Counted from the first letter of the stretch, positions 3,960 to 64,000 are shown. The stretch: 64,000 nt of DNA from Treponema pedis (GCF_017161325.1 NZ_CP045670.1:1107367-1171366), one strand, 5' to 3'. Notes: generated by a model not told the origin, from the letters alone. Made by a program: numbers and translations.

Positions 3960-6184
3960 ATGAATATAGAACTTTTAGCACCGGCAGGGAATACGGAAGC
4001 TCTGGACGCTGCAATAAATGAGGGTGCCGACGCGGTATATTTGGGATTAAAAAGTTTTAATGCCAGAATGCGCTCTTCCAATTTTGCGTGGCCGCAATTT
4101 GAAGCCGCCGTTGAAACTCTTCACAAAAAAACAAAAAAGTTTATGTTACCGTAAATACGGTTTTAATAGAAAACGAAACGGAAAAAATGTACCGCTTTTT
4201 AAATTATTTAAATGCGGTAGGTCCTGACGGAATTATAGTGCAGGATTTGGGAATTGTGCAAATGGTAAAAACTTATTTTCCGAAATTAAAATTGCATGCT
4301 TCAACACAAATGAATATAGCCTCGGCAAAGGCTGCAAATGCTTTAAGCCGTTTCGGGGTTTCACGTGTAGTTCTTGCGCGGGAACTTTCGTTAACGGAAA
4401 TTGCAAGTATCAATTCGGAAACTTCCTGTGAGCTTGAAGTTTTTGTTCATGGGGCTCTTTGCATTTGTCAATCCGGCTTGTGTATGTTTTCTTCTTACCT
4501 CGGCGGAAAATCCGCAAACCGCGGAATGTGTTCGCAAGCCTGCCGCCGTTTATACAAAGCGCATACGCCTCAAGGGGATAAAGAAGGCTACTATTTTTCT
4601 CCGTACGATTTACAGCTTATCGACTATGTTCCCGATTTGGTAAAAGCGGGAGTCCGTTCGTTTAAGATAGAAGGAAGAATGAAAAGTGCCGAATATGTAG
4701 GTACCGCAGTTTCGGCTTACAGATATGTTTTAGATAATTGGGAAAAAGATAAAAAAACCGCAATTGAAACCGGACGAAGAATTCTTGCAAACGATTTTGC
4801 CCGCAAAAAAACTTCCTTTTTATTTATAAATTCAAAAGCGGAAAATATTTTAAATCCGTTACAGGCAGGCGGTACCGGAATTTTTTTGGGCACGATAGAA
4901 AAAACCGCCGATTTTAAAATTACCGAGGTTGCAGGCAAAACAAAAGAAGAACCTCTAAGAAAGGTTCATTATGTATTGCTCAAAGGCGGCGGTTATACTC
5001 CGTCCTTCGGAGATTCTATCAGACTTCATACAAAAGACGACAAGGGCAGAGAAAGCTGGAAACTTCAAGATATACGAGAGGAAGGCGGTAAAACGTGGCT
5101 GCAAGTTCCCGATAATTTCGGCATAGGCGACAGCGTTTATCTTTTGCAGACAAAAAATATGAGTAAACACTATCCGCAAATCTTACCTAAAAATTTATCG
5201 GCATACCGCCGCCGCCCTCTTGATGAAAAATTGCCCGAGCTGAAACTTTTTCCTGAAGGAAAAGCCGACGTAAAAGAAACGGTTCAGGGAAATTCCAAGC
5301 AAAAGAAAAACGGAAAAAAAGCCGATGTAAAAAACGTTCTGACAAAATCCAATGTAGATATTTTCCCCGACGGCTTTTACGTTCAAGTATCTTCAATTAA
5401 CAGTTTGCATACAATTCTTTCGGATAAACCGGTGCGGGTAATTATTAATTTAAACGAAGATACAAAAAAAGGTTTTGAAGAATTTTTATCGACGGGAAAG
5501 CCTTTGCCTTTTTCAAAAAAAGAAATTTTTATTTCACTTGACCCCTTTATGCCGCAAGATAAAATTGCTGAACTTGAAACCTTTTTACTTTATTTAACCG
5601 AAAGCGGCTACACTCAATTTGTTGTAAATAATCCGGCGCATATTACAATGCTGAAAAACAAAAAAGCTAATTTAATTGCGGGCGGATATCTTTACGGTTT
5701 TAACCGATGGGCTTTAAAATGGCTTCAGGAAAACGGCATTACGCAATTTACTTCTCCGATTGAAAATTCTCAAAAAAACTTGGAAGAGGTTTATGCCCCC
5801 GGAATGAGAAAACAGGTTTTAATACCGGTATTTGCATATCCCGCTCTTTTTAGAATGCGCTTTACCTTACCGGAAAGTTATAACTTTTTATATTTTTCGG
5901 ATAAGCAAGGAGAAGCCTTTAAAGCCTTTTCAACTCCGTCATCTTCTTTTGTATTGCCTGAAAAACCGTTTTCCATTACCGACAGAATTACGGCACTGGA
6001 AAAAAAAGGCTTTGCAAAATTTTTACTTGATTTTTCGCATACCGAAATCGAGCGCGGCGAATACCGCAAAATAATTGCCGCTTGCCGTAAAAATGAATTT
6101 TTGGAAGATACTTCGCGCTTTAACTGGAAAGAAGGTTTTTACGACCCCGTAAAAATAGAAGCAAGAAAAAAAATGCAAAGCTGA
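3960..6184 (+). CDS. peptidase U32 family protein (collagenase-like, with a DUF3656-type C-terminal extension), interrupted by a -1 frame change inside the A7-C-A6 tract at 4125-4138. N-terminal 65 codons 3960-4154, the rest in the 4115-6184 frame.
   Basis: N-terminus MNIELLAPAGNTEALDAAINEGADAVYLGLKSFNARMR is the canonical U32 start. It stops at 4152-4154. The -1 frame continues from 4115 as ...KKVYVTVNTVLIENETEKMYRFLNYLNAVGPDGIIVQDLG, which is the canonical continuation (track ORF 4187-6184 is the tail). One extra A in the tract gives a single ~740-aa ORF. Confidence 0.7.
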
Positions 6185-34489: not shown

Positions 34490-35596
34490 ATGGCTATAAA
34501 CTGCGGAATTGTCGGGTTACCCAATGTAGGTAAATCGACCATATTTTCGGCATTAACAAACGCTCCTGCGGAAGCCGCCAATTATCCGTTTTGCACAATT
34601 AACCCCAATATAGGAATTGTAAATTTGCCCGATAAAAGGCTGAAACTCTTGGCGGAACATTTTAACCCCAAGCGTGTTATACCGGCAGCCGTAGAATTTG
34701 TCGATATTGCGGGCCTTGTAAAGGGTGCCTCCAAAGGCGAAGGATTGGGCAATCAATTTTTATCGCACATACGGGAGGTGGGAGTTATAGCCCACGTTGT
34801 CCGCTGTTTTGATAATGACGATATAGTCCACGTTGCCGGAAAAATAGACCCTGTTGCCGATATAGAAACCATTAACATTGAACTTGCCCTTGCCGACTTG
34901 GCGAGTTTGGATAAGCGTACCGAAAGAGCGGAAAAAGCTATGCGCATGAGTAAAGAAGCTCAAAAAGAAGCGGCGGTCGTTATAAAGGCAATCGAAAAAA
35001 TACGGCCTCTTTTACAGGACGGAAAGGGCGCCCGCTTAGCCGATTTAACCGATGAAGAAAAAGATGCAATATACGACACACATTTAATTACAATGAAGCC
35101 TCAAATGTATGTCTGCAATGTTGATGAAAACGGAATGACCGGCGATAATGAATACGTACGGGCGGTAAAAAAAATTGCGGAAGCCGAAGGTGCGGACGTT
35201 GTAATAATTTGCGGTAAATTCGAAGCGGAACTTTCCGATTTGGAAAGCGAAGAAGAGCGCCTTACATTTTTAGCCGAAGCGGGCTTGGAAGAATCGGGCC
35301 TTTCGCAGCTTGCAAGGGCCGCCTATAATTTAATCGGGCTTAGAACCTTTTTTACCGCAGGAGAAGATGAATGCCGGGCTTGGACAATACATGCAGGAGA
35401 TACCGCCCCTAAGGCTGCCGGAGTAATTCATACCGATTTTGAACGCGGATTTATAAAAGCGGAAGTTTACGGGTTTGACGACTTTGTAAAATACGGCTCG
35501 GAACAAAAAATAAAAGAAGCGGGCCGCTACCGCCAAGAAGGCAAGGCCTACACAGTACGGGACGGAGATATTATATTTTTTAAATTTAACGTATAA
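34490..35596 (+). CDS. ychF: redox-regulated ribosome-binding ATPase YchF
   Basis: [24 protein letters not shown]1 motif; 368 aa with a C-terminal TGS domain. Confidence 0.9.
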
Positions 35597-35653
35597 GCCG
35601 GATTAAAATACTTAAAGATACCGCAATTATTTTTAATTTCGGTATCTTAAGCC

Positions 35654-35682
35654 TTGACAAAATCTGCCTTGCTTTTTATAAT
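35654..35682 (+). promoter_or_regulatory. perfect consensus sigma70 promoter TTGACA(35654-35659)-17-TATAAT(35677-35682)
   Basis: Exact match to both hexamers with the optimal 17-nt spacer. Confidence 0.5.
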
Positions 35683-35689
35683 GTTTACT

Positions 35690-35897
35690 ATGGTACAAAA
35701 AGATATTTATTTAGAAAAAAATTTAAATACTTACTCAAAAACCCCTAGACAAAAAGTGGGAAAATATCGTATAGTCCCCCCCCCCCCTCTATATCAAAAC
35801 AACACAGTCTATAAATTAACTGAAAACATAGATATTTTTCTTTTTAATAATAAACGCATAAGACGCTTTTTTTACTTTGTCTTATGCGTTTTTTTAT
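35690..35897 (+). ncRNA. candidate ~200-nt small RNA or 5' leader: consensus promoter, AT-rich body with a C12 homopolymer (35776-35787), strong intrinsic terminator
   Basis: Predicted TSS about 35689. Terminator: 12-bp stem aacgcataagac (35853-35864)/gtcttatgcgtt (35879-35890) followed by TTTTTTT. The only ORF through it (track 35654-36064) lacks an SD and reads through the terminator. Confidence 0.35.
35853..35897 (+). terminator. rho-independent terminator (12-bp stem + U7)
   Basis: See above; perfect 12-bp inverted repeat with a 14-nt loop, then ttttttt. Confidence 0.55.
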
Positions 35898-36060
35898 ATA
35901 TTTACCTCTTTAAAAATAAATCGACATTTTTATTTTTTAATTTTTTAAAGCGGTTTAACCCCTTGAGTTTTTACGGGGCAATCGGTGCAGCGTCTTTCGA
36001 ATATATCGGAGCTTACAAATATAGGAAAAAGCCGGCGGGCATAAACGCAAGGAGAAAAAA

Positions 36061-36702
36061 ATGAAACAAAGTAAAAGAAAATCTTTTGTTGGAGCGGTAA
36101 TTTTTACTGCATTGGTATTGGTTGCCGGACTTTTGGCAGGCTGCCCGAATGGTGCGCCTAAAAATACTAACACAAGTAATACAGGTAACACAGGCAATGC
36201 GGGTAGCACAGGCAACACAAGCAATGAAAATCAGAATAGTATTTTTAAACTTTACTATGGTACCATAGCCGGGTATACGTGCAAAAAAGAAGAACTTCCT
36301 TCCGTTATGGTAATACCGCATAAAGTAAGGGGTTGGGCTATTACAGGAATAGGCCAGAGAGTTTTTGAAAACTGTACGGGCATAACAAGCTTAGACCTAT
36401 CCGCCTGTACAGCCCTTTTTCAAATAGGCCATACAGCTTTTTCAGGCTGTACGGGCTTAACAAATGTGGACTTATCTGCCTGCACACTTCTTACCGCAAT
36501 GAGTTATGACGTTTTTTGCGGTTGTACAAATGCAGAAATAAAACTGCCTGAAAGCATAACCCTTATACTCGGTCATCCTTTTGGAAGCAAAGAAGATGAT
36601 TTTTGCAAAAAAGTTCTTATAAAATCGGGTCCGAATTTTGAAAGAATAAAGGAGCTTTTAGTAGAGTCAGGCTATCCTGAAGAAAGAATCGGACAGTATT
36701 GA
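36061..36702 (+). CDS. lipoprotein with BspA-type leucine-rich repeats and an N/T/G-rich low-complexity linker
   Basis: Signal peptide + lipobox LLAGC; linker NTNTSNTGNTGNAGSTGNTSNENQN; LRR-like segments ITSLDLSACTALFQIGHTAFSGCTGLTNVDLSAC; AAGGAG SD. Confidence 0.65.
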   Translation: MKQSKRKSFVGAVIFTALVLVAGLLAGCPNGAPKNTNTSNTGNTGNAGSTGNTSNENQNSIFKLYYGTIAGYTCKKEELPSVMVIPHKVRGWAITGIGQRVFENCTGITSLDLSACTALFQIGHTAFSGCTGLTNVDLSACTLLTAMSYDVFCGCTNAEIKLPESITLILGHPFGSKEDDFCKKVLIKSGPNFERIKELLVESGYPEERIGQY

Positions 36703-36923
36703 TTAACCCCTGCTGCCGTTTTAAAGACAAGTTTTTTAAAAGCGGCAGGTGTATAATCCTATCTTTATTAATCCTATGCTTTTTTAAGCTCTCAAAAAAG
36801 CATAGGGTGGAAGTAACTGAACTCATCTATGTTTATTTTTCCTTATTTTTAACTTTTACAGATGCGAATCCGCTCGGAAGCGCCGCTTTATTATTCCTCC
36901 TTTTTTTGCTATACTTATTTATT

Positions 36924-38321
36924 ATGGAAATATCATTGCAAAATATTAAAAATTTATCCGTTACGGTCATGGGCTTAGGCTTAAACGGAGGCGGCTCTGC
37001 AACCGCCGATTTTTTTGCACGGCATGGTGCAAGGGTAACGGTTACCGATTTAAAGCGGGCGGAAGAATTGGCTCCTTCAATCGAAAAGTTAAAAAAGTTC
37101 CCGAACATACGCTTTATATTGGGTGAACACCGCATTGACGATTTTAAAAATGCCGATGTTGTAATTAAAAATCCGGGAGTTAAACTTGAAGGGAATAAAT
37201 ATTTACAGGAAGCAAAACAAATCGAATCCGACATTTCCGTTTTTCTTGCAATGTCAAAGGCTCCTATTTTAGCGGTAACGGGCAGTAAAGGAAAATCGTC
37301 TACCGTGAGCGCTCTTTACTACGGTTTAAAAAAACTTAAGTTTAATGCTTTTTTAGGCGGAAATATTACGGTAAGCCCCCTTTCATTTTTGGAAAAGACA
37401 AACGGTGCAACACCTGTCGTGCTTGAGCTTTCAAGCTGGCAGCTTGCCGATTTAAAAAATGCAAATTCATTAAAACCTAAAATTGCAATTATCACTCCTA
37501 TAATGCCCGACCATTTAAATTGGTACGGCACAATGGAAAAATATGTTGCGGATAAAAAACTTATTTATAAAAATATGAATAATAAGGATTTTTTAATTTG
37601 CAATTATGATGATACATGGGGCTCTTCGTTTGCAGCTGAAACCGCAGCAAAAGTTTTTTGGTACGGCGAAAATAAATTGCCTGAAAATTTAAGCGGAGTT
37701 TTTTTCGATAAGGCCGGAAACGGGGTTTATAAATCGGCGGGCAACGGGGAGGATGAAACCGTACGGCTTCTTTCCGCAAATTGTAAAGTGCCGGGCGTAA
37801 AGTTAAAACAAAATGTTTTAAATGCCGCATTGGCTTTAGTTTTATACGGAGCGGAGCCTAGAGAAGTTTTTACCGTCATGAATGAATATGCGGGTATAGA
37901 ACACCGTATGGAATTTTTTTATGAAACAGACGGAATTAAATTTTATAACGATACGGCCGCAACGATACCCGAAGCGGTAACGGCCGCATTAAACGCTTTT
38001 ACGGAGTCTCCCGTTTTAATTTGCGGCGGTACGAATAAGTGTTTGGATTTTACTCCTCTTGCCGAAAATGCTCATCTTGCAAAAAGTGTATTTTTGCTTC
38101 AAGGCTCCGGAACCGATTTACTTATTCCAATGTTGGAAAAACGCGGAATTAAATATCAGGGTGCTTTTTCAAGTTTAGATGAACTTCTTTTAGCGGCAAA
38201 ATCCGAATTAAAATCCGGCGATACCGTTTTATTTTCTCCGGGGGCTGCAAGTTTCGGAATGTTTAAAAACGAATTTGACAGAGGAAATTGCTTTAAAGAA
38301 AAGGTAAAAGAATTCTTTTAA
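36924..38321 (+). CDS. murD: UDP-N-acetylmuramoyl-L-alanine--D-glutamate ligase
   Basis: Start chosen at ATG 36924 (MEISLQNIKNLSVTVMGLGLNGGG...); GSKGKSST P-loop; the track's 75-codon N-terminal extension (from 36699) is not MurD-like. Confidence 0.85.
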   Translation: MEISLQNIKNLSVTVMGLGLNGGGSATADFFARHGARVTVTDLKRAEELAPSIEKLKKFPNIRFILGEHRIDDFKNADVVIKNPGVKLEGNKYLQEAKQIESDISVFLAMSKAPILAVTGSKGKSSTVSALYYGLKKLKFNAFLGGNITVSPLSFLEKTNGATPVVLELSSWQLADLKNANSLKPKIAIITPIMPDHLNWYGTMEKYVADKKLIYKNMNNKDFLICNYDDTWGSSFAAETAAKVFWYGENKLPENLSGVFFDKAGNGVYKSAGNGEDETVRLLSANCKVPGVKLKQNVLNAALALVLYGAEPREVFTVMNEYAGIEHRMEFFYETDGIKFYNDTAATIPEAVTAALNAFTESPVLICGGTNKCLDFTPLAENAHLAKSVFLLQGSGTDLLIPMLEKRGIKYQGAFSSLDELLLAAKSELKSGDTVLFSPGAASFGMFKNEFDRGNCFKEKVKEFF

Positions 38322-45525: not shown

Positions 45526-47328
45526 ATGAGTGTTAAACGGCAGGAAAGTATCAAATACGGAATATTAAGCAATATTTTATTTATGCTTAAAAATGCTCAT
45601 CTTTATTGTAAAAGCGTTTACCTTCTAATTATTTTTGAAGCTTTTTTTTATGCTGCGGATAATGTTTTAAGTATATTTTTATTGCCGTCAATTTTAACTT
45701 TAATTCAAAATGGAGGCGGCGTACAGCCTCTTTTTAAAACTATAGTTTTATTTTCTTCCGGTATTGTTTTATGTAAAGGTTTTTTAGGCTATATCGAAAC
45801 AAACTCTCTTTTCGGAAGGGTGGAAATTAGAAGCCGCCTTGTTTTTTTACTCGGTAAAAAAGCGATGACAACATCTTATAATAATTTATATAAAGAAGAT
45901 TTTATCAATCATAAAAATAAGGCAATGCAAACTACGGACAGCAACAGTGAAGCCTGTGAAGCAATTTGGGATACTCTGTCAAGTCTTTTAAAATATATAT
46001 CAGGTTTTTTAATTTATATTATTTTGCTTTCTTCAATAAATTTTAAAATAATTGCGGCGGTACTTTGTACTTCCGTTATAAGTTTTATATTAACAAATGC
46101 GGTAAACACTTGGAAGTATAAAAATAAATCGGAAGAGGAAAAACATATTACAAAACTTCATTATATTACCGAGTGTAGTAAAAGTAAAGAGTTCGCAAAA
46201 GATATACGTATGTTCGGCATGCAAAATTGGTTTAAAGAGTTATACCTTAAGCATCTTAAACTTTATATGTATTTCCAATTAAAAGGAGAAATACGTTATT
46301 TTTTTGCAGACCTTTCAGATATTATTTTAACCGCATTAAGAAACGGCCTTGCTTATTATTGGCTTATTTCCTCAGTAATAAAAAATGCCTTAAGTATTCC
46401 GCAATTTATTTTATACTTTACGGCGGTAACGGTTTTTACTCAATGGATTATGGAAATATTAAATACGGTTTCAACCTTGCATAAACAGTCATTGGAGATT
46501 TCCTGTTTTCGGGAGTTTCTTGAATATAAAGAAGATTTTTTATTTGCAAAGGGTGAAGAGCTTCCCGTTTTAAAAGAAAATACAGTCGAACTTCAAAATA
46601 TAACCTTCCGTTATTCGGAAAACGGTACTTGCATTTTAGATAATTTTAATTTAAAGATTAAGCCGAAAGAAAAACTTGCAATAGTCGGATTAAACGGCGC
46701 GGGTAAAACTACATTGGTAAAACTTATTACGGGGCTTTACGACCCTAATGAAGGCAGGGTTTTATTTAACGGAAAAGATATAAAAACTTTTACCCGCAGT
46801 GAATATTATAAGTGTTTTAGCGCGGTATTCCAAGAGTTTTCAATTTTACCTGCCCCTATTTTTGTTAATGTTGCACAAGCTGAAGAAAGCGCCGATAAAA
46901 ACAAAGTTAAAGAATGTTTAGAACTTGCAGGTCTTTTAAAAAAGGTTTGCTCGTTACCTGATAAAGAAGACACGCGCCTTTGTAAAGATATTTTTTTCGA
47001 TGCGGCGGAATTATCCGGAGGAGAAATTCAAAAACTGTTATTGGCGAGGGCTCTTTATCAAGATAGACCTTTTTTAATTTTAGATGAACCTACCGCCGCC
47101 CTTGACCCCGTTACCGAACAGGAAATATATTCCAATTTTAACGGAATGGTAAAAGATAAAACTTCCGTTTTTATTTCACATCGTCTTTCTTCATGTAAAT
47201 TTTGCGATGAAATTATAGTTTTCGATGAAGGGCAAATCGTTCAACACGGGACCCATGAAGAACTTGTAAAAGATACGAACGGCGTATATAAAACTTTATG
47301 GGATTCGCAGGCCCGGCATTATTTATAA
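45526..47328 (+). CDS. ABC transporter permease/ATP-binding protein (exporter)
   Basis: 600 aa; Walker A GLNGAGKTT, signature LSGGEIQK, Walker B FLILDEPT. Confidence 0.85.
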   Translation: MSVKRQESIKYGILSNILFMLKNAHLYCKSVYLLIIFEAFFYAADNVLSIFLLPSILTLIQNGGGVQPLFKTIVLFSSGIVLCKGFLGYIETNSLFGRVEIRSRLVFLLGKKAMTTSYNNLYKEDFINHKNKAMQTTDSNSEACEAIWDTLSSLLKYISGFLIYIILLSSINFKIIAAVLCTSVISFILTNAVNTWKYKNKSEEEKHITKLHYITECSKSKEFAKDIRMFGMQNWFKELYLKHLKLYMYFQLKGEIRYFFADLSDIILTALRNGLAYYWLISSVIKNALSIPQFILYFTAVTVFTQWIMEILNTVSTLHKQSLEISCFREFLEYKEDFLFAKGEELPVLKENTVELQNITFRYSENGTCILDNFNLKIKPKEKLAIVGLNGAGKTTLVKLITGLYDPNEGRVLFNGKDIKTFTRSEYYKCFSAVFQEFSILPAPIFVNVAQAEESADKNKVKECLELAGLLKKVCSLPDKEDTRLCKDIFFDAAELSGGEIQKLLLARALYQDRPFLILDEPTAALDPVTEQEIYSNFNGMVKDKTSVFISHRLSSCKFCDEIIVFDEGQIVQHGTHEELVKDTNGVYKTLWDSQARHYL

Positions 47329-63380: not shown

Positions 63381-64000
63381 TCCCTATAAATTCATCAAGC
63401 GCAGATTTTATCAAAAATCGAGCATTGATGAATTTCCGCCGTTTTGCAAGAGCAGCTGAAAAACGGCATACAATCCCGACGTTTGCCGAAAGGCGAACTC
63501 GCAGTTAAAATTAAGCGACGCTATCTTAGGAGCTTAATTTTAACCTCCCTATAAAATAAACAAGCGCAGAAAATATCAATTTTCGAGCATTGTTTATTTT
63601 CCGCCGTTTTGCAACGGAGTGAAAAACGGCATATAATACACGATGTTTGCCGAAAGGCAAACTCGCAGTTAAAATTAAGCGACGCTATCTTAGGAGCTTA
63701 ATTTTAACCTCCCTATAAAATAAACAAGCGCAGATTTTATCAAAAATCGAGCATTGATGAATTTCCATCGTTTTGCAAGCACAGCTGAAAAACGGCATAT
63801 AATACACGACGTTTGCCGAAAGGCGAACTCGCAGTTAAAATTAAGCGACGCTATCTTAGGAGCTTAATTTTAACCTCCCTATAAATTCATCAAGCGCAGA
63901 TTTTATCAAAAATCGAGCATTGATGAATTTCCGCCGTTTTACAACGGAGTGAGAAACGGCATATAATATACGATGTTTGCCGAAAGACAAACTCGGCAGT
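63381..64000 (+). repeat. tandem array of at least 4 copies (unit 164-166 bp, ~85-95% identity, copy starts 63381/63546/63710/63876) of a structured repeat; array continues beyond the window. Each unit carries a promoter-like TTGCAA-17/19-TATAAT, a GAAA-tetraloop hairpin, a 12-bp hairpin and a 10-bp stem with compensatory substitutions.
   Basis: Direct comparison of copies. Stem aattcatcaa/ttgatgaatt (copies 1, 4) is replaced by aaataaacaa/ttgtttattt (copy 2). Inner stem gatttt/aaaatc becomes gaaaat/attttc. Hairpin gtttgcc-GAAA-ggcaaac. Stem ttaaaattaagc/gcttaattttaa encloses a taggag loop. Confidence 0.85.

Follow-up and report, generated by a model that had tools for sequence, protein, structure and literature searches.

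A strain-variable poly-C tract between a strong promoter and a lipoprotein gene of Treponema pedis: a candidate frame-dependent switch of transcription termination

What might a run of twelve cytosines do between a strong promoter and the gene of a predicted surface lipoprotein? The question is raised by a locus of Treponema pedis, a main agent in bovine digital dermatitis and porcine ulcers whose surface antigens are candidates for vaccines and diagnostics. The locus lies in a stretch of 64,000 nucleotides (GCF_017161325.1, NZ_CP045670.1:1107367-1171366), called the window below, and all positions are counted from its first letter. The tract in question is C12 at 35776-35787 on the plus strand, followed by T-C and set between the flanks TATAG and CTATA. 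An earlier sequence-only reading of the window had singled it out as a possible phase-variation switch. Our own answer is tentative and is held at somewhat less than even confidence: the run would be a contingency tract, prone to slipped-strand mispairing, whose length controls read-through of an intrinsic terminator by way of a reading frame. As a candidate for an on/off switch of a well-known general type, the tract is credible.

We first consider whether the run is remarkable at all. The G+C content of the window is 37.9%, and the tract is its sole run of C or G longer than 6; the longest remaining runs are 5 for C and 6 for G. Under a model of independent and identically distributed bases, only 7e-5 runs of C with a length of at least 12 are expected in 64 kb. 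The C12 run is thus real and not a product of chance, which bears out the earlier claim that such a run is far from random in DNA of about 38% G+C. Its length also exceeds the value of about 8 from which a homopolymer is long enough to slip, and lies far above chance expectation.

The sequence-only reading had also placed the tract between a strong promoter and a gene for a BspA-type lipoprotein, and this order stands. The promoter P1 (TTGACA-17-TATAAT, 35654-35682, plus strand) matches the sigma-70 consensus at 12 of 12 positions and is the sole perfect match in the window, where 5 sites with at most one mismatch were counted against 0.7 expected. On the other side of the tract is the LRR_5 (BspA-type) lipoprotein gene TPE_1056 (WP_020964852; 36061-36702, plus strand), which encodes 213 amino acids and matches Pfam LRR_5 with E=8e-10. 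Its product has a basic N-terminus, a hydrophobic core and the lipobox LLAG/C, and is 100% identical to a protein recorded as 'leucine-rich repeat protein / surface protein [Treponema pedis]'; a Shine-Dalgarno sequence, AAGGAG, is found at 36049-36054 on the plus strand, 6 nt before the ATG. The onset of the tract is 94 nt 3' of the P1 -10 hexamer, and the tract lies 64 nt 5' of a terminator stem and 273 nt 5' of the lipoprotein gene. What the earlier reading had overlooked is a frame-sensitive annotated open reading frame (ORF) that reads the tract as Pro-Pro-Pro-Pro, the ATGA overlap by which this ORF meets the lipoprotein gene, and the fact that the whole arrangement sits in a strain-variable cassette.

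The terminator (35852-35898, plus strand; inverted repeat I6) is a predicted intrinsic one with a 14-bp stem, a 12-nt loop and a U7 tail. Its folding free energy is -17.6 kcal/mol with a z-score of -6.41, and none of 200 shuffled sequences folds as well. A simple terminator scan, in which loops of up to 8 nt were allowed, overlooked it because its loop is longer than that. The suggestion of the earlier reading that tract length might act on leader structure or on termination fits this anatomy, because a strong intrinsic terminator stands between the tract and the lipoprotein gene. No sigma-70-like promoter was found by the promoter scan between the terminator and the lipoprotein ATG at 36061, and so the gene appears to depend on read-through. 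A predicted intrinsic terminator between the start of a leader ORF and a structural gene is also the arrangement of an attenuator. As for the rest of the leader, none of its segments is more stable than shuffled sequences, and the surroundings of the tract are unstructured and G-poor. The idea that C12 is a structural element in the loop of a stable hairpin was considered and is not supported (local fold with a z-score of -0.19, no better than shuffles). A weak sigma-54-like GG-N10-GC element (CGGGGCAATCGGTGCA) at 35970-35990 is the sole hint of an alternative promoter 3' of the terminator.

The overlooked ORF runs for 124 codons from an ATG at 35690 to 36064 on the plus strand. It is the core of TPE_1055 / DYQ05_05035, which is annotated in CP004120.1 and in the DYQ05 genome as a hypothetical protein of 136 amino acids with an upstream TTG start. 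The transcription start predicted for P1, at about 35689-35690 and thus 7-8 nt past the -10 hexamer, coincides with the ATG at 35690. From this ATG the frame reads the tract as Pro-Pro-Pro-Pro (codons 30-33), crosses the terminator, and closes at an ATGA in which its TGA and the lipoprotein ATG overlap. Tract lengths from C8 to C18 were simulated, and it was found that the frame is open as far as ATGA only at lengths of 3n. At all other lengths, a stop codon is met at 35812-35819 (plus strand), either 27 or 32 nt past the tract, which is 5' of the terminator and more than 30 nt before its stem; the truncated products end after 40-44 codons. The tract therefore lies in the 5' part of an ORF that is truncated by every non-3n length, as in intragenic switches.

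The region of the upstream frame has a G+C content of 31%, and a stop-free frame of 124 codons is therefore unusual. Among 20,000 dinucleotide-preserving shuffles, only 1 left the whole frame open; for the part after the tract, the number was 17 in the given frame and 70 when any frame was allowed. The first 29 codons, up to the tract, are gene-like (+8.7 bits, about 0.30 per codon, compared with 0.33 for the LRR gene). It may be the openness of the frame that matters, and not its product.

From these elements a mechanism can be proposed. Transcription from P1 would start on or next to the ATG and give a leaderless messenger RNA (mRNA), and ribosomes would translate the upstream ORF, reading the tract as a run of prolines. 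At a 3n length such as C12, the ribosomes would trail RNA polymerase through 35852-35898, suppress the hairpin and finish at ATGA, and the lipoprotein mRNA would be made and translated (ON). At lengths of 3n+1 or 3n+2, the ribosomes would be released 27-32 nt past the tract, the terminator would form, and the lipoprotein gene would stay untranscribed (OFF). The single steps have precedents: translating ribosomes repress intrinsic terminators near or inside ORFs in a position-dependent manner (PMC4824070), a stall at polyproline breaks the coupling of ribosome and polymerase, and more intrinsic termination follows (PMC5021804), and leaderless mRNAs occur in spirochetes (PMC5314773). If frame-dependent read-through is true, the locus would couple a mutational switch to transcription termination in a compact way, a combination that we did not find described.

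The locus was also recovered from many assemblies by exact-protein look-up, which allowed tract lengths to be compared between strains. In the finished genome of T. pedis T A4 (CP004120.1), C12 is followed by T-C, as in the window. This genome was sequenced by 454 and Sanger methods, and its homopolymers were corrected with 30 M Illumina reads (PMC3747143). The same C12 allele is present in a de novo Logan assembly of T A4 reads (SRR952247). A second allele is present in a Logan contig of SRR19906116 (locus L028), which reads TATAGT-A-C12-TATATC, with 13 nt between the flanks compared with 14 nt and hence a net change of -1. On the same contig, a C-to-T change at the equivalent of window position 36421 turns about codon 121 of the lipoprotein gene into a stop and leaves ORFs of 120 and 67 amino acids, so that the net -1 allele and a nonsense mutation of the lipoprotein gene occur together. 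In GCA_038397865.1, the right-hand contig (L025) starts with C23 abutting TATATC, which gives an allele of at least C23. The left-hand contig of this assembly, JARGEW010000082.1 (L010), has G54 at 4287-4340 straight after TATAGT; we rejected it as real sequence and regard it as a loss of signal at the tract, probably an artefact of two-colour chemistry in the deposited assembly.

There are thus at least three tract alleles across strains. The sequence-only reading had named invariance of the length among strains as a finding that would speak against a switch, and such invariance was not seen. Switching within a population, and an effect of it on the lipoprotein, are parts of the proposed mechanism. 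The contigs of AOTM, AOTN, AOTQ, SRR954505, SRR954937 and SRR19906115 end 0-60 nt from the tract, some on one side of it and some on the other; altogether at least 8 assemblies break at the tract, which is a breakpoint in essentially every draft. Among the broken drafts, AOTQ, AOTM and SRR954505 have flanks identical to those of T A4, which is suggestive of length heterogeneity within a clonal population but confounded by the sequencing platform.

The copy of the locus in the window itself has to be read with care. The flanks in the window are 100.000% identical to those in two de novo assemblies, GCA_050433605.1 and SRR24886678, over 7.1 kb around the locus and over 11.1 kb further on, yet the cassette is absent from both. 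These assemblies also contain DNA of at least 19.6 kb that is missing from the window between 50187 and 50239, and two ABC-transporter paralogues compared with one in the window (45746-47177, a block at 98.7% identity), so that the structure of the window departs from them at three places in 64 kb. On the other hand, the cassette in the window differs from the T A4 cassette at 0 of 1052 positions, while the flanks show about 11 differences per kb, and the chromosome of the record with the window's proteins is 2,889,390 bp long compared with 2,889,325 bp for T A4. Because of the 0/1052 cassette differences, the cassette-less assemblies with no single-nucleotide polymorphism (SNP) against the window over more than 18 kb, the three structural departures and the near-equal chromosome length, the window genome was probably built on T A4 as a reference, from which it would have received the cassette. 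The tract itself exists in T A4 and in the other strains that have the cassette, but not necessarily in the strain for which the window is named. Counting the window and T A4 as two independent observations of C12 was therefore rejected, as the window is probably reference-guided and SRR952247 is T A4 itself. There is a practical warning in this, as hardly any draft contains the locus in full, and in at least one 'complete' genome it appears to derive from the reference only.

The comparison of strains also defined the cassette. It is a unit of 1,052 bp (35651-36702, plus strand) that comprises the promoter, the leader and ORF with the poly-C tract, the terminator and the LRR lipoprotein gene. 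It starts 3 nt before the -35 hexamer and ends with the lipoprotein stop codon, and is therefore a complete expression unit. A TTAA is present at each junction (left, 35647-35650; right, 36703-36706), and cassette-less loci retain a single TTAA; in the loci L006, L008, L009 and L014, position 35650 is joined straight to 36703. At least 6 assemblies lack the cassette, and at least 4 lineages have it. When T A4 was compared with four de novo assemblies of other lineages, 1-2 SNPs were found in the cassette, whereas 12-14 would be expected at the rate of the flanks (P 2e-5 to 5e-4), which is a diversity about ten-fold lower than that of the flanks. Outside the junctions, differences are seen again from 2-4 bp on the right-hand side and from 20 bp on the left. 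The SNP deficit together with these sharp boundaries indicates a recent spread of the cassette.

The cassette encodes no transposase, its only ORFs being the upstream frame and the LRR gene; it has no terminal inverted repeats, and its ends fold no better than shuffles. An assignment to IS200/IS605-like or integron-type elements was rejected, as subterminal hairpins, an attC-like end and inverted repeats are all missing. A very recent gain or loss, with an identical flank haplotype both with and without the cassette, was also considered and rejected: the sole case is the window, which is probably reference-guided, and L008 is not T A4-like. Taken to its full extent, our proposal would describe a phase-variable attenuator, in which a frame switch in a leaderless ORF is made sensitive to elongation factor P (EF-P) by its polyproline, and which moves between T. 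pedis lineages as a transposase-less cassette of 1 kb at one TTAA site. We regard this full combination as unlikely.

The cassette lies between ychF and murD. Upstream, ychF ends at 35596 and is followed by a terminator hairpin (35615-35648, plus strand; inverted repeat I10) with 15-bp arms that are 93% complementary and a 4-nt loop. It lies just 5' of the insertion site in strains with and without the cassette, and in the latter it abuts the upstream region of murD. Downstream, the cassette junction creates a 540-amino-acid 'MurD' ORF (36699-38321) that starts from a TTG at 36699. In cassette-less strains, murD is called at 465-504 amino acids and has its own TGTATAAT-type promoter 3' of the insertion site. 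The longer N-terminus of the 540-amino-acid ORF is probably a product of annotation only.

A number of observations weigh against frame-dependent read-through. Some concern the upstream ORF. Its overall codon log-odds score is +3.7 bits, compared with a mean of 54 and a 5th percentile of 35 for windows of real genes, and its codons after the tract score -7.5 bits, so that only the part before the tract is gene-like. No homologue other than the ORF itself was found among 5.8 billion proteins, and no Pfam family was matched. There is no Shine-Dalgarno sequence, so that translation would need a leaderless mRNA, and the ORF was not called by the gene caller on the Logan contig of T A4 reads. Others concern the leader: no alternative antiterminator structure and no competing helix were found in the leader folds, and in E. 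coli a terminator can still act when it lies no more than ~100 bp into a coding region (PMC4824070), while the terminator here is about 160 nt into the frame, a borderline position. The evidence from strains is also weakened at two points. The broken drafts with T A4-like flanks were MiSeq Nextera XT libraries, whereas HiSeq was used for T A4, and a platform effect may therefore partly explain the assembly breaks. The finished sequences share one allele by descent or copying, and the in-frame state has therefore effectively been observed once. Finally, distant LRR_5 homologues (8 loci) are without such a tract.

These points leave room for other explanations. The tract might act in an untranslated leader or at the level of the promoter, altering the amount of transcript in a graded manner without involvement of the ORF. 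There is a second promoter-like site (TAGACA-18-TATAGT, 35746-35775, plus strand) whose -10 hexamer ends at the base before the tract, so that initiation there could start inside the C run and lead to reiterative transcription; other routes would be pausing on the G12 template or the use of the C-rich and G-poor segment as a Rho-loading site. The site ending exactly at the tract, the unstructured and G-poor leader, and an ORF that by codon usage is not gene-like and is without homologues all agree with this, and upstream G tracts outside the promoter spacer alter mRNA levels elsewhere (PMC7302503). Nevertheless, the second site is a consensus match only, at just 10 of 12 positions and with an 18-bp spacer, none of the routes is a specific mechanism backed by the sequence, and the 124-codon open frame ending in ATGA is left unexplained; we consider graded control of this kind unlikely. 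It is likewise improbable, and slightly more so, that P1 and the terminator enclose a self-contained gene for a small RNA of about 207 nt, or for a peptide of about 41-44 amino acids, with the lipoprotein gene as a separately transcribed neighbour. In such an RNA, C12 would be an unpaired C-rich element pairing with G-rich targets such as Shine-Dalgarno sequences, in the manner known for C-rich loops of other bacteria (RsaE/RoxS, RepG). A perfect promoter with a predicted strong terminator about 207 nt further on is the classic anatomy of a small RNA, with both of its own signals predicted, and the minimum free energy fold of the whole transcript puts C12 in a 14-nt loop closed by TATAG/CTATA, with an overall z-score of -3.75. 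This z-score is, however, driven by the terminator, the hairpin around the tract reaching only the -0.19 given above. There are no Rfam matches beyond noise at gathering or E<=1 thresholds, no related locus was found outside the cassette in the scans of sequence collections, and a separately transcribed lipoprotein gene would need a promoter where none was found 3' of the terminator.

The tract could also be a hypermutable but neutral passenger in the leader DNA of a recently acquired cassette, and the open frame a coincidence. No related system has a conserved tract of this kind; the cassette, with its near-zero diversity, is young, and there has therefore been little time for selection; and the very long allele of at least C23 resembles a runaway expansion and not a tuned switch. 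Against this, the position of the tract, the frame arithmetic and the ATGA overlap are jointly improbable by chance, and there is no other such tract in 64 kb, so that such runs are not freely tolerated or created in this genome. We assign neutrality a low probability. Far less probable still is selection of the tract as four proline codons, which would make the locus a physiological attenuator dependent on EF-P or prolyl-tRNA instead of a stochastic switch. The arrangement, with Pro-Pro-Pro-Pro 64 nt 5' of an in-frame intrinsic terminator, is the same as one that gives premature intrinsic termination in E. coli lacking EF-P (PMC5021804), but proline runs need no homopolymer, CCT and CCG are the commoner proline codons here, and alleles exist that break the frame or greatly lengthen the run.

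The relatives of the locus were searched more widely. The nearest homologues of the lipoprotein are 39-50% identical and are found on metagenomic contigs with a G+C content of 42% and Bacteroidales-like neighbours. A poly-C or poly-G tract as a conserved trait of LRR_5 homologues was rejected, as no run of 7 or more is present at the 8 nearest-homologue loci. The scan of genome contigs gave no relative of the lipoprotein, and the viral sequence scan gave no match. When both flanks of the tract were searched in metagenomes with a gap of 2-32 nt between them, one chance match in unrelated DNA and no extra alleles were obtained. The 22-nt left flank was found in genome contigs only in a coding region ('KVGKYRI') of a metagenome-assembled Clostridiaceae genome, with about 0.07 chance matches expected. 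The literature searched contained no papers on such tracts in the T. pedis / T. denticola group or on TPE_1055/1056.

Some further features of the window are recorded here. The linker after the lipobox contains imperfect repeats with a period of 9 nt (36167-36226), encoding NTSNTGNTGNAGSTGNTSN; here, too, the length could vary, without loss of frame. The 13 nt of TTTACTATGGTAC are present at 35684-35696, over the predicted transcription start and the start of the upstream ORF, and again, as an exact repeat, at 36251-36263 in the lipoprotein gene, within a region of 22 nt at 86% identity. Part of the terminator loop and its 3' arm (35867-35885) is 84% complementary over 19 nt to the lipoprotein coding sequence at 36061-36079, including the ATG (I4), and this pairing could sequester the start codon in read-through transcripts. 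It was not used in our analysis: it is statistically indistinguishable from chance in this AT-rich DNA, where 95 inverted pairs were counted, and the leader fold is non-significant. Near the end of the window are three tandem Rfam TD-1 RNA motifs (RF03155; 97, 78 and 74 bits; 63384-63999, minus strand), close to which one draft contig or more (AOTM01000013.1) appears to end. Together with the identity of the lipoprotein, these motifs place the window in T. pedis, a close relative of T. denticola.

If the lipoprotein is both strain-variable and individually switchable, it would be a poor vaccine target and a marker of immune or niche selection. If the proposal is true, it would also extend the paradigm of T. 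pallidum to treponemes that are cultivable and genetically tractable. In T. pallidum, the poly-G tracts of tp0126, tprE/G/J, tprF/I and tprL vary in length within and between isolates and modulate transcription (PMC7864442). The T. pedis locus shares with them the genus and a G/C homopolymer 5' of a predicted surface-protein gene, and the sequence-only reading had drawn this analogy. In mechanism, the analogy fails. The poly-G tracts lie within the promoter (in tp0126, between -35 and -10), whereas the P1 spacer (35660-35676) is a fixed, tract-free 17 bp, and the tract neither falls in this spacer nor overlaps the -35 hexamer; it is in the predicted transcribed region, in an ORF and before a terminator. 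The targets also differ, being Tpr and OmpW proteins there and here an unrelated, predicted LRR_5 lipoprotein.

Other systems resemble the locus in part. The poly-G tract of M. catarrhalis uspA1 lies outside the -35/-10 spacer, its length alters the mRNA level, and its alleles differ by strain (PMC7302503). It is like the T. pedis tract in being a strain-variable homopolymer 5' of a surface-protein ORF and outside the spacer; unlike it, the uspA1 tract is 29 bp 5' of the ORF and has a graded high/low effect, while here the distance is 273 nt, with a terminator and an overlapping upstream ORF in between. In leader-peptide attenuation and EF-P coupling of E. coli, too, a short frame has a terminator in its path and the position of the ribosome is decisive (PMC4824070, PMC5021804). 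Classical attenuators differ by their antiterminator hairpin and their sensing of charged tRNA; here no such hairpin was found, and the proposed input is a heritable change of frame. Intragenic frameshift switches (the G tract of M. catarrhalis mid/hag, and those of Neisseria, Haemophilus and Campylobacter) also have a tract near the 5' end of an ORF and early stops at non-3n lengths. The shifted ORF is the effector in those cases, whereas here it is an upstream frame without homologues, and the lipoprotein would be affected via polarity only; the position typical of intragenic switches is thus fitted only through an upstream ORF of doubtful coding status.

In H. pylori, the small RNA RepG acts on a variable homopolymer, the G-repeat in the tlpB leader, with which its C/U-rich loop pairs. 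In that system, a conserved small RNA provides the C-rich element and the variable repeat is what it targets, whereas at the present locus neither a partner RNA nor a G-rich target is in evidence. The poly-C tracts of the Bordetella fim genes exert slipped-strand control over surface-protein genes with runs of similar length. The same is true of the poly-C run of N. meningitidis opc (cited in PMC7864442). The opc and fim tracts overlap or adjoin the -35 hexamer or an activator site, while the tract in T. pedis is 3' of its promoter. By its length and its variation between strains, then, the locus fits the known class of homopolymer contingency tracts beside surface-protein genes.

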